Source: Parachlamydiales bacterium (GTDB lineage Bacteria; Chlamydiota; Chlamydiia; Chlamydiales; JAEYWL01). From it: 64,000 nucleotides of DNA. The notes below the pieces were generated by a model that was given only the letters and a program-made list of their open reading frames with translations, was not told the DNA's origin and searched no databases. Every line of letters begins with the position of its first letter. Position 1 is the stretch's first letter. The position numbers were made by a program, and so were the translations under genes. The stretch spans positions 1,054-65,053 of the forward strand of contig JAGVLX010000002.1 of NCBI GenBank assembly GCA_020054065.1, given 5' to 3'. Positions 42,461 to 44,378 of the stretch are shown in pieces.

Positions 42461-43010
42461 GGGTCTGTTCTCCTTCCGATTGGTCTTGTCCTTTTTCGCT
42501 CTTTTTCTTCTTCCCGCCGCCCGGTGCTAGCACGAAACCAACACTGCGTCCTAACATCTTGGGGGGCGCTTCCACAGTAGCGACATCTTCGAGGTCTTGA
42601 ATCACTTTTCGAACCAGTTTTTCACCGATCTCTTGGTGCATCATTTCCCGTCCGCGGTAAGTCAAAGTCATCTTCACTTTATTCCCCTTCGTGAGGAATT
42701 CGCGGGCATGGCGCATTTTTGTTTCGAGATCATGCGGATCGATATTCGGCTTGATCTTGATCTCTTTTACTTTAATCGTATGCGAGGCCTTCTTACTCTC
42801 TTTTTCCCGTTTTGTTTGATCGTATCGGAACTTTCCGAAGTTGATGATCTTGCAAACGGGCGGGTTTGAGTTGGGTACTACTTCGACCAGATCTAATCCG
42901 TGCTGATCCGCAAGGTTCAACGCTTCTTGGATTGAAATGATTCCGATTTGTTCTCCATCAGGACCTATCACGCGCACCCTAGGGGCGCGAATTTCGCGGT
43001 TTACTTTCAA
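42453..43010 (-). CDS. infC: translation initiation factor IF-3
   Basis: INREIRAPRVRVIGPDGEQIGI..LDLVEV..PPVCKIINFGKFRYD. The only possible start is TTG 43010, with an in-frame stop 6 codons upstream. Confidence 0.93.
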   Translation of the reverse strand: MKVNREIRAPRVRVIGPDGEQIGIISIQEALNLADQHGLDLVEVVPNSNPPVCKIINFGKFRYDQTKREKESKKASHTIKVKEIKIKPNIDPHDLETKMRHAREFLTKGNKVKMTLTYRGREMMHQEIGEKLVRKVIQDLEDVATVEAPPKMLGRSVGFVLAPGGGKKKKSEKGQDQSEGEQTRA

Positions 43011-44304
43011 GCGACTCCAAAACTCCTATTTTTTCATCGACATCGATGAAATGTTCGATAAGCAAGGCCGCCAACCGTTCAACTGAACCGAAGAGCGAGC
43101 TTACTACCATTGCGGGGCAATGGGTTTGTCCCTGATGCGGTTTGGAAAATACTTTAATGTGCTTAGGCAGATTAAAGTCGATTTCCACAAAACCGCAGCT
43201 CCACGCGCGTTGATAAACATCCCGAATCTGCACTTCAGCCCAAGGGCCGTGGCGAACAAGATTTTCCTCATCAACTCGATAGGCAATGCCACACTGTTTC
43301 AAGGCATCTACTAACGTGGCAACACCGGCATCCCATTCAGGAAAAGCGGGTGTTTTTTTATGGGTTCGAGCTCTTAAAATCCACTCATGCTCGAAACCGA
43401 GAATTGTAATCATTTCCCGAATGAATTGCAAGGACGAAATCAGCTCATGCCCCAGCTCTTTCATTCCTGAAAACGCATAAGTGAGCCCCATGGTCGCATG
43501 GGTGTGATCCATCAGATTGTGGGTGTACCCAACCTCTTCGGTGCGAGAAATTTGAACCCATTCAGCCCATCGTAGGGAGTCCGTTGCAACGAGTTTAGCG
43601 ATCTCTTGCAGCGATGCTGTAGGATCTCTTTGAATTTCAGGAAATTGCCTGTGGCCCACTCCCTTACGCCAATACGCCTGCAGGGCATGGAGTAAGGCTG
43701 CGCCCTTGGACAGCCATACCAGTTGACCGGACGGCAGGAACGTAAAATATTTCTTTTGAGGGCCTAGGGTGCGATGGTCGCGCGCGCGGGCTGACTCGAG
43801 GTGCTTCAAAAAAGTTTTAAGGGTTTGTTTGTCACTTGCGGCAGTCCCCGTGATGCGAATGATCTCCAGCTCTTCCTCCCCTTTCATTTCTGAGATGTCA
43901 AACAGCTTATAGGCGGCTAACGCTTTGGTGGTCGGAGTGAAGGGCCCAGCCGAGAGGTCATAAAAATCGCCGATGCGGCAGAGGTCGACAAATTTAGTTT
44001 TAAGGGCTTCAAGCTGTTCAACCAACAACACTTGTTTGCGGTGCGCCATGAGTTGGATGGCGTTTGTGCGCAGCATGGTTACTGATTCAATGGGGAGATC
44101 CTCGGTGATTAAAAAGCGGACCCGTTCTTCGATTTGAGGTAAATATTCTTTTGAAATCGGTTGGGAGAAGTAGAAATCGTAGTGAAACCCTAATTCATTT
44201 ATCGCGCTGCCAATAAGTTTCGCGTGAGGAAATAGGTCTAAGATGGCAGAAGCGACAACTTCGGCTAAGGAGCGGTGCAGGGTGGGTAAGGGTGAAGAAG
44301 TCAT
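42979..44304 (-). CDS. truncated, catalytically degenerate threonyl-tRNA synthetase paralog
   Basis: FPHAKLIGSAINELGFHYDF, ARARDHRTLG and QRAWSCGFVEIDFNLP..SSLFGSVERL align with ThrRS. There is no TGS or anticodon-binding domain, and the motif-2 region is missing. Start set at ATG 44304, because the track's longer ORF would overlap the tRNA. Confidence 0.75.
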   Translation of the reverse strand: MTSSPLPTLHRSLAEVVASAILDLFPHAKLIGSAINELGFHYDFYFSQPISKEYLPQIEERVRFLITEDLPIESVTMLRTNAIQLMAHRKQVLLVEQLEALKTKFVDLCRIGDFYDLSAGPFTPTTKALAAYKLFDISEMKGEEELEIIRITGTAASDKQTLKTFLKHLESARARDHRTLGPQKKYFTFLPSGQLVWLSKGAALLHALQAYWRKGVGHRQFPEIQRDPTASLQEIAKLVATDSLRWAEWVQISRTEEVGYTHNLMDHTHATMGLTYAFSGMKELGHELISSLQFIREMITILGFEHEWILRARTHKKTPAFPEWDAGVATLVDALKQCGIAYRVDEENLVRHGPWAEVQIRDVYQRAWSCGFVEIDFNLPKHIKVFSKPHQGQTHCPAMVVSSLFGSVERLAALLIEHFIDVDEKIGVLESLESKPRNSRP

Positions 44305-44378
44305 TGGGATATAGCTGACTCGAACAGCTGACCTCCACGATGTCAACGTGGCGCTCTAACCAACTGAGCTAATATCCC
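44305..44378 (-). tRNA. tRNA-Val (anticodon GAC)
   Basis: Reverse complement GGGATAT-TA-GCTC-AGTTGGTTA-GAGC-G-CCACG-TTGACAT-CGTGG-AGGTC-AGCTG-TTCGAGT-CAGCT-ATATCCC-A. Full cloverleaf of 74 nt, with no encoded CCA. Confidence 0.92.

Follow-up and report, generated by a model that had tools for sequence, protein, structure and literature searches.

The 64,000-nt stretch of Parachlamydiales DNA analysed here, hereafter called the window, raises the question of what kind of gene stands directly upstream of infC, in the position classically held by thrS, the gene of threonyl-tRNA synthetase (ThrRS). The open reading frame (ORF) in that position, on the minus strand, codes for 441 amino acids which resemble ThrRS, and its ATG follows a gene for tRNA-Val(GAC). 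An earlier interpretation made from the letters alone, the sequence-only reading, had taken the product for a non-catalytic ThrRS paralog retained for a new role and not for a decaying pseudogene. The explanation favoured here, held with slightly better than even confidence when the proposed steps of expression are included, is that the gene encodes a maintained, catalytically dead ThrRS descendant (pseudo-ThrRS) of a chlamydial family, whose product would, more tentatively, serve translation without catalysis, as an RNA-binding protein or a regulator.

The homology along the length of ThrRS claimed in the sequence-only reading was borne out, and all the peptide strings quoted in it are present in the translation. 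The NCBIfam model thrS (TIGR00418) matched with E = 1e-45 and 156.7 bits in two partial stretches, under its cutoff of 383.65 bits, and E. coli ThrRS (1qf6) was matched with E = 5e-34 in an alignment with PDB sequences. Residues 7-225 of the protein correspond to residues 69-294 of E. coli ThrRS (the N2 editing domain and linker) and residues 243-420 to residues 352-530 (the class II core). An AlphaFold (AF2) model built from 11 family sequences had a mean predicted local distance difference test score (pLDDT) of 82, with most of the N2-like domain above 90 and the lowest values of the model (below 50) in the motif-2 loop (residues 256-264). When this model was submitted to Foldseek, full-length ThrRSs came out on top, with template modelling (TM) scores of 0.73-0.80 (1qf6_A with E = 1.6e-34; 1nyq with TM 0.77-0.80, TMq being 0.80 for 1nyq_B), and the predicted protein has the N2 and class II core fold.

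The defects listed in the sequence-only reading all proved real. A Pfam scan of the 441-aa protein gave no match at E <= 10, TGS, tRNA_SAD, tRNA-synt_2b and HGTP_anticodon (PF03129) all being without match, and the chain ends 21 aa past motif 3, with neither an anticodon-binding domain nor a TGS domain. The shortening across the CPGH/motif-2 region, previously put at about 50 aa, came to about 40 aa; it lies between motif 1 and motif 2 and takes out the SGHW loop and the PMNCPGH segment, including the Zn ligand Cys334. The editing HxxxH motif and the Zn ligand His511 had been said to be lost, and neither was found: none of the four residues of HxxxH/CxxxH is kept (H73R, H77E, C182S, H186F), nor is any of the three threonine-selecting Zn ligands (C334 deleted, H385Y, H511V; E. 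coli numbering). Further active-site changes are R375D, F379A, Q381M, D383L, Y462H, K465W, Q479S and Q484E. The list of defects can be refined in one point: motif-2 Arg363 and Glu365 and motif-3 GSxER are still present in the window copy. Three of 18 functional residues are thus retained (R363, E365 and R520), and the RDHR linker is kept. Because the Zn ligands, the threonine-binding Asp383, HxxxH/CxxxH and the anticodon-binding and TGS domains are absent and the motif-2 loop is degenerate, aminoacylation and editing are predicted to be impossible, and the protein, as read from its sequence, cannot be a ThrRS or an editing factor by any known mechanism.

The window belongs to the JGI metagenome contig Ga0394682_065142, and its pseudo-ThrRS is one of a family. 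Relatives were sought by a profile search that was exhaustive over 1.84 billion representatives, the family being counted at the level of 50 %-identity clusters among the best profile matches, and the 18 functional residues were tabulated for 17 loci and about 160 representatives. Retention of these residues was bimodal: about 146 pseudo-representatives kept 0-7 of the 18, canonical ThrRSs kept 16-18, and none fell between. The pseudo-representatives are 405-620 aa long, none with a TGS domain. The family has lost 84 of the 176 columns in which canonical ThrRSs are conserved to 90 % or above; no member keeps Cys334, His511 is hardly ever kept, and the residues at R363 and E365 vary among relatives (K, H, T, N, D or S). 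The family was accordingly defined as TGS-less ThrRS homologues with at most 7 of the 18 functional residues, E at H77, MMRxNA, K163/K167 and SSLQF; the window protein, which is TGS-less, keeps 3 of the 18 and has E15, M77-M78-R79-N81, K163, K167 and S290-S-L-Q-F294, falls within it. Protein P0372 was considered as an intermediate form and rejected, being a normal ThrRS in a non-chlamydial thrS-infC operon.

A species-level genome scan (one genome per GTDB species, using family peptide patterns) found 12 loci, all 12 in metagenome-assembled genomes (MAGs) of Chlamydiota, in agreement with the placement of the gene in Chlamydiae; most were labelled Parachlamydiaceae and one was a complete chromosome. 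The nearest relatives, P0002 and P0003, have 469 aa and 37-40 % identity and occupy the same slot, and the next, of 556-586 aa, also stand directly upstream of infC and keep the anticodon-binding domain. That domain is absent, as in the window protein, from about 17 of the approximately 146 representatives. Its loss is scattered over a neighbour-joining tree with at least 11 state changes, a rough count on a weakly resolved tree, and the domain-less forms make up about four separate groups (judged from loci in which the stop codon and the downstream infC were verified). Loss of the anticodon-binding domain, as it appears from these comparisons, is clearly recurrent, and the window form represents a minority state. 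Long forms retain many hallmark residues of the domain, and tRNA-Thr-type anticodon binding may persist in them. The family is not covered by a model in Pfam or in NCBIfam, the JGI/IMG label of P0001, P0005, P0122, P0189, P0367 and P0371 is 'threonyl-tRNA synthetase', and a full-text literature search gave no account of a dead bacterial ThrRS paralog or of a tRNA-Val - pseudo-ThrRS - infC operon. The family, with its unusual gene start that abuts a tRNA and has no ribosome-binding motif, appears to be undescribed, although non-catalytic derivatives of aminoacyl-tRNA synthetases (aaRSs) as such are known.

To decide between retention and decay, orthologs were compared in their dN/dS ratios (omega), as the sequence-only reading had suggested. 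Pairs from metagenomes were either identical or saturated, and P0005/P0006 were used instead. Between loci L002 and L003 (65 % identity) the pseudo-ThrRS gene had an omega of 0.16, compared with 0.045 for infC, 0.067 for rpmI, 0.068 for rplT and 0.023 for pheS of the same loci. Between L006 and L034 (73 % identity) omega was 0.06-0.09, and the N2-like domain was the most constrained part, with 85 % identity as against 67 % in the core; more distant pairs gave 0.11-0.15 with dS saturated. The dN of the pseudo-ThrRS gene was 6-15 times that of neighbouring genes. Estimated in this way, constraint on the protein is real, if relaxed. Intact ORFs occur, at 25-65 % identity, in all but one (L017) of about 27 loci, and neutral sequence could not remain open over 1.2-1.8 kb at such pairwise identities. 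In L017 (positions 3922-4020; MAG MFD04540.bin.2.15) the first approximately 20 codons (MNQTTLDSIRRTTAEVMACA...) lie in another frame than the rest, and L017 may be the one frameshifted case among the copies or may owe its shift to an indel mistake of long-read assembly.

The family also has conserved residues of its own. Over about 138 clusters, residues which are different or unconstrained in real ThrRSs are conserved at 86-99 %: M77, M78, R79, N81, H88 and Q91 of the N2-like domain, the pair K163 and K167, spaced by one helical turn on the linker helix, and the I-S-S-L-Q-F-I helix (aa 289-295) after motif 2. In addition, Glu replaces His77 in 71 % of the family. Frameshifts or stops, a dN/dS near 1 and patchy presence, which would mark a decaying pseudogene, did not characterise the family. 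Because of the dN/dS of 0.06-0.16 and the near-invariant residues peculiar to the family, the comparisons support a retained and selected pseudo-enzyme under a new constraint, and not a decaying pseudogene or a translated spacer; the claim of a retained pseudo-synthetase, to which the intact ORFs in the same slot also speak, has thus been upheld at the level of the family.

The junction with the tRNA gene was as the sequence-only reading had described it. The minus strand reads ...GCTATATCCCA/ATGACTTCT..., the ATG (44304-44302) following the discriminator A44305 with a 0-nt spacer, and there is no room for a Shine-Dalgarno (SD) sequence. The frame closes at TAG 42981-42979, giving the 441-aa ORF and, with the infC TTG at 43010, the previously noted overlap of 32 nt. 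The only other in-frame start, TTG 44346, to which the ORF finder had extended the gene, was rejected since it lies inside tRNA-Val; the frame is open through the tRNA from this point because the conserved tRNA sequence has no stops in it, and the same 'SATLTSWRSAVRVSYIP' pseudo-extension recurs in several relatives. The conserved N-terminus of the protein, LRxSAAExLA, starts just past the ATG, and in the family alignments conserved residues begin at about position 8; ATG 44304 was therefore taken as the start. ARAGORN found a single tRNA in the window, tRNA-Val(GAC), and an Rfam scan of 40.0-47.5 kb gave nothing beyond it, the remaining matches being far under the gathering scores.

This linkage is general in the family, to whose definition the position between tRNA-Val(GAC) and infC and the lack of an SD also belong. 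A near-identical tRNA-Val(GAC) stands directly upstream on the same strand in all 26 distinct loci with upstream DNA, and the gap from the tRNA to the start codon, 0 nt in the window, is 3 nt in two loci and at most 31 nt in 22 of the 26. An SD core (at least 4 nt, between -25 and -4) was found for 0 of 15 family genes, compared with 23 of 46 crudely called ORFs of the window, and its absence holds even where the spacer is 95-147 nt. A promoter-like pair, with -35 TTGCAT at 44428-44423, a spacer of 18 nt and -10 TATGCT at 44404-44399, lies about 20 nt 5' of the tRNA, and almost all of 16 related loci have TTGnnn-17±1-TAnnnT at a distance of 15-35 nt upstream of the tRNA, the match in L011 being farther upstream. 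A scan for consensus promoters and terminators returned no more sites than shuffled controls, TTGCAT-18-TATGCT being too weak to be reported; because the scan was at chance level, the putative tRNA-Val promoter is proposed from its conservation only.

In bacterial tRNA precursors without an encoded CCA, RNase Z cuts right after the discriminator and leaves a 5'-phosphate on the trailer. CCA is encoded in 2 of 16 tRNAs of the first set of loci and not in the window. Among tRNA-Val(GAC) genes of the family loci the 3' CCA is encoded in a minority (L005, L008, L021, L022 and L032), and the route of tRNA-Val 3' processing, and hence the formation of the mRNA 5' end, may differ between lineages. 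The first 80 nt of the window mRNA would be unstructured (-6.9 kcal/mol, z = -0.6). With its 0-nt spacer, lack of CCA and SD and unstructured 5' end, the anatomy of the window gene is consistent with a leaderless mRNA; a literature search gave no bacterial precedent for leaderless mRNAs made by tRNA processing.

At the other end of the gene, a TTG start of infC (cTTGAAAGTnAAyAGAGAAAT) with an SD of the GAGGAG type 11-13 nt upstream was found in 17 of 17 first-set loci, an unusually long spacing. E. coli infC has an AUU start which serves the autoregulation of initiation factor 3 (IF3). The stop of the pseudo-ThrRS gene and the start of infC share a TTGA in four of the 17 loci and overlap by 11-32 nt in four more, including the window. 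Translational coupling of the two cistrons is likely here from this arrangement but would not be a property of the whole family, because gaps of 16-100 nt separate them in about half of the loci.

As claimed in the sequence-only reading, the gene occupies the thrS-infC slot, directly upstream of infC-rpmI-rplT-pheS. The order in relatives is uvrC ... tRNA-Val - X - infC - rpmI - rplT - pheS (P0002 and P0003 loci), where X is the pseudo-ThrRS gene, and infC-rpmI-rplT-pheS follow in the loci with gene calls. Because thrS-infC-rpmI-rplT-pheST is the classical bacterial arrangement, seen also in a non-chlamydial genome (L020), the gene is best read as the positional descendant of an ancestral thrS. 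After pheS comes not pheT but a gene for an RluD-type pseudouridine synthase (39744-40685, minus strand), as in L003, L004 and L005; as the RluD-type gene stands in the place of pheT, pheS and pheT would be unlinked in these chlamydiae.

No canonical thrS was found by Pfam scans of 30 large ORFs in the 64-kb window, which returned asnB-like, phoD, aspS, hisS, fused glyQS, dnaG, acrB, secY, ribosomal proteins and others, and a tblastn search of the window and the related loci (±4 kb), with two canonical ThrRSs as queries, found the pseudo-gene only. ThrRS is universally essential and is not known to have a bypass, and a competent thrS would therefore be expected elsewhere in the carrier genomes. 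The top canonical matches of the family profile were considered as the chlamydial housekeeping ThrRSs and rejected, as those with a named source come from Fervidibacter and Campylobacterales and not from chlamydiae.

The favoured explanation can be set out in five steps, of which the first four are moderately likely. The gene would descend from the thrS of the classical operon and could have dropped catalysis since a second thrS would provide Thr-tRNA. With no space for a separate promoter, it would be co-transcribed with tRNA-Val, from the promoter of the tRNA, as one tRNA-mRNA molecule. A cut of the RNase Z type after A44305 would then free an mRNA which starts at, or within a few nt of, the AUG, so that initiation in the window would be SD-independent and leaderless; the uncut precursor would be poorly translatable, with the tRNA body at -1 to -74 occluding the ribosome. 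Ribosomes finishing the ORF would pass the SD and TTG of infC, linking translation of the two cistrons. In the last step, to which only a weak commitment is made, the protein would serve translation as a scaffold that binds RNA or regulates but does not catalyse. Since family members have repeatedly shed the anticodon-binding domain, its function would be seated in the N2-like domain and the core.

Several observations weigh against this explanation. The omega values are rough, since none of the informative pairs has a dS clear of saturation, and the window clade has no close relative (the nearest have 37-40 % identity), so that current constraint on the 441-aa copy has to be read off the family as a whole. 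A slowly eroding relic, too, would be expected to lose domains repeatedly and to have a fast dN. The net charge of N2 and core is -6, compared with -17 in real ThrRSs, and because it is only mildly less acidic the protein carries no strong RNA-binding signature. In the first-set loci other than the overlapping ones the stop precedes the infC start by 16-100 nt, and infC has an SD of its own. Finally, as no canonical thrS was found in the 64 kb of the window and ±4 kb of the related loci, the terms 'paralog' and 'functionally replaced' depend on the universality of ThrRS.

Of the other explanations, a non-catalytic partner of the housekeeping ThrRS was considered unlikely. Such a protein would have kept the dimer interface of class II enzymes, would pair with the housekeeping ThrRS as a heterodimer or bind it otherwise, and would thereby influence how active, stable or accurate that enzyme is. 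This reading would account for the conservation of the motif-1 Pro (82 %) and the Gly270 equivalent (100 %), the kept motif-3 GSxER and the predicted preservation of the class II core fold, and it has a precedent in PheRS, whose beta subunit carries a dead catalytic-like module, and a parallel in the ThrRS duplicates T1 and T2 of Anabaena, which trans-oligomerise according to PMC4787780 (see also PMC9437257). The fixed linkage, however, is to tRNA-Val and infC and not to thrS, the N2-like domain and not the core is the better conserved in L006/L034, and residues E278, H285 and H297 of the motif-1 region of real ThrRSs are lost. A more specific version of the expression steps is rated as quite improbable: a processing-gated module in which cutting of tRNA-Val yields a leaderless or nearly leaderless mRNA, disfavoured by IF3 and coupled into infC, would provide IF3 feedback without an AUU start, the dead scaffold possibly binding the tRNA part of its own precursor, or the ribosome, as a translation factor new and specific to chlamydiae, and might be regarded by analogy as a bacterial counterpart of mitochondrial tRNA punctuation. 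Initiation on leaderless mRNAs is disfavoured by IF3.

Two further readings are doubtful, to about the same degree. The ORF could be an eroding relic that stays open for reasons in cis, because its translation shields the transcript or feeds infC or because infC signals lie inside it, the protein being functionless. The infC SD and start do lie inside or just past the ORF (with the TTGA overlap in four loci and 11-32 nt in four more), domains have been lost stepwise (TGS in all members, the anticodon-binding domain repeatedly), dN exceeds that of the neighbours 6-15 times and L017 is apparently frameshifted; yet a spacer needs only the absence of stops, which leaves unexplained an omega of 0.06-0.16, residues foreign to real ThrRSs fixed at 86-99 % over about 138 clusters, a confidently predicted fold and an N2-like domain which, far from infC, is 85 % identical in L006/L034 when the core is 67 %, and the 16-100-nt gaps in about half of the loci rule out coupling as a universal constraint. 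Alternatively, the protein could be an accessory of the ribosome or of initiation, resembling the mitoribosomal protein mL39, a recruited homologue of the ThrRS N-terminus, and expressed in stoichiometric amounts with IF3, L35 and L20, as might be suggested by its invariant membership in the operon with infC-rpmI-rplT, a match of the N2-like region to mL39 chains (E = 3e-6, PDB) and a net negative charge lower than that of real ThrRSs. The operon position is inherited from thrS and for this reason carries little functional information, and the likeness to mL39, far below that to ThrRS itself, reflects no more than a common origin from ThrRS. Least probable is that the protein is still an enzyme: the organism's sole ThrRS, working through an unorthodox active site, or else a ligase related to aaRSs that acts on a new substrate. 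Motif-2 Arg363 and Glu365 and motif-3 Arg520 survive in the window copy, no second thrS was found in the window and related loci searched, and many aaRS-like paralogs act on new substrates (PMC9437257). Against this, Arg363 and Glu365 are not conserved among relatives, model confidence is lowest in the motif-2 loop, the anticodon-binding domain is missing, and the Zn ligands, Asp383, Gln381, Phe379, Tyr462, Lys465, Gln479 and Gln484 are lost; because these lost positions vary across the family, no alternative pocket is conserved. A maintained, catalytically dead descendant of thrS is thus the preferred explanation, and the features on which it draws are collected in Table 1.

Table 1 Features of the tRNA-Val - pseudo-ThrRS - infC locus, in window coordinates
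Feature	Positions	Strand	Basis and remarks
Putative sigma-70-type promoter of the tRNA-Val operon	44399..44428	-	Read from sequence and cross-locus conservation
tRNA-Val(GAC), 74 nt	44305..44378	-	ARAGORN; Rfam RF00005, 68.6 bits; discriminator A at 44305; no encoded CCA
Pseudo-ThrRS coding sequence, 441 aa, 50 kDa, pI 6.6	42979..44304	-	ORF and ThrRS homology; no SD
N2/editing-like domain, aa 1-175	43780..44304	-	Aligned to ThrRS residues 69-240
Degenerate class II core fold, aa 185-420	43045..43752	-	Motif-1 Pro and motif-3 GSVER kept
Site of ~40-aa deletion, aa 225-243	43576..43632	-	Replaces E. coli 294-352; PDB and multiple alignment; low model confidence
infC ribosome-binding region in pseudo-ThrRS 3' end	43008..43027	-	SD AGGAG 43027-43023, 12-nt spacer, TTG 43010-43008
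infC (IF3), 185 aa	42453..43010	-	Pfam IF3_N/IF3_C
rpmI	42263-42460	-	Conserved gene string
rplT	41888-42244	-	Conserved gene string
pheS	40785-41813	-	Conserved gene string

Other features of the window were recorded in passing. Divergent from the tRNA-Val promoter region is an ORF of 232 aa (44434-45132, plus strand) which has no Pfam match; L003 has a weakly conserved counterpart (25 % identity, E = 8e-25), and in L002 the ORF is seemingly split. Between this ORF and the convergent uvrC (45188-47065) lies a perfect 13-bp hairpin (45159-45189) with T-runs on both strands, which resembles a bidirectional terminator and draws spurious sub-threshold Rfam matches to small RNAs and microRNAs. A fused glyQ-glyS of 1009 aa (51508-54537, plus strand) is consistent with a chlamydial origin, and an S10/spc ribosomal-protein cluster ending in secY occupies 1904-11893 (minus strand); neither is out of the ordinary. 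Four ORFs, all on the minus strand, at 26929-29556 (875 aa), 23161-24531 (456 aa), 49986-51329 (447 aa) and 38595-39572 (325 aa), had no Pfam match at E <= 1e-5.

If the explanation is correct, no catalytically dead derivative of ThrRS would have been described from bacteria before the pseudo-ThrRS. Being widespread in environmental Chlamydiae and tied to the operon of IF3, L35 and L20, it is a candidate for a lineage-specific factor of translation or RNA handling, and the family would offer a natural series of stepwise losses (first TGS, next catalysis and editing, last the anticodon domain) from an essential enzyme to a pseudo-enzyme. The SD-less junctions of 0-30 nt between tRNA and ORF would provide a testable bacterial case of tRNA processing that sets the 5' end of an mRNA. 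In practical terms, the label 'threonyl-tRNA synthetase' can hide a missing thrS or count it twice when the completeness of MAGs or their metabolism is inferred, and also when aaRS complements are called.

Compared with known systems, the pseudo-ThrRS is nearest to canonical ThrS (TIGR00418; E. coli 1QF6, S. aureus 1NYQ), with which it shares the N2 and class II core fold, the motif-1 Pro, RDHR, GSxER and the slot before infC-rpmI-rplT-pheS. It differs in having no TGS or anticodon domain, a deletion of about 40 aa, none of the 3 Zn ligands, none of the 4 editing residues and 157 as against 384 bits, and it is preceded by a tRNA gene without leader or SD. Non-catalytic aaRS derivatives include the accessory subunit of Pol gamma, SLIMP, HisZ and PheRS beta. 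HisZ, the HisRS-like regulatory subunit of ATP phosphoribosyltransferase, is a class IIa paralog which has no anticodon-binding domain and does not aminoacylate. From general knowledge it is therefore alike as a bacterial class IIa paralog, lacking that domain and kept as a non-catalytic protein, but HisZ keeps its histidine pocket, its partner HisG and its pathway, whereas the pocket of the pseudo-ThrRS is destroyed and a partner or metabolic context is not evident. In mL39, too, a module of the ThrRS N-terminal type is reused without catalysis, a precedent for dead proteins of aaRS descent as structural or accessory parts, although mL39 consists of TGS and N2-like parts without a core and is eukaryotic and organellar, whereas the pseudo-ThrRS consists of an N2-like domain and a core. 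As regards expression, again from general knowledge, animal mitochondrial tRNA punctuation is similar in that coding sequences start at the 3' boundary of a tRNA, and is known from organelles; in E. coli thrU-tyrU-glyT-thrT-tufB a tRNA promoter likewise drives a protein gene, but tufB has a normal leader and SD. Among ThrRS-derived second copies with altered domains and specialised roles, a 2022 survey of aaRS duplications lists as the only ThrRS paralogs the T2 protein of Anabaena and the eukaryotic ThrRS-L (TARSL2), both active (PMC9437257); the Anabaena T1/T2 pair and ThrRS-L are thus catalytically active enzymes, whereas the chlamydial family appears to be dead.

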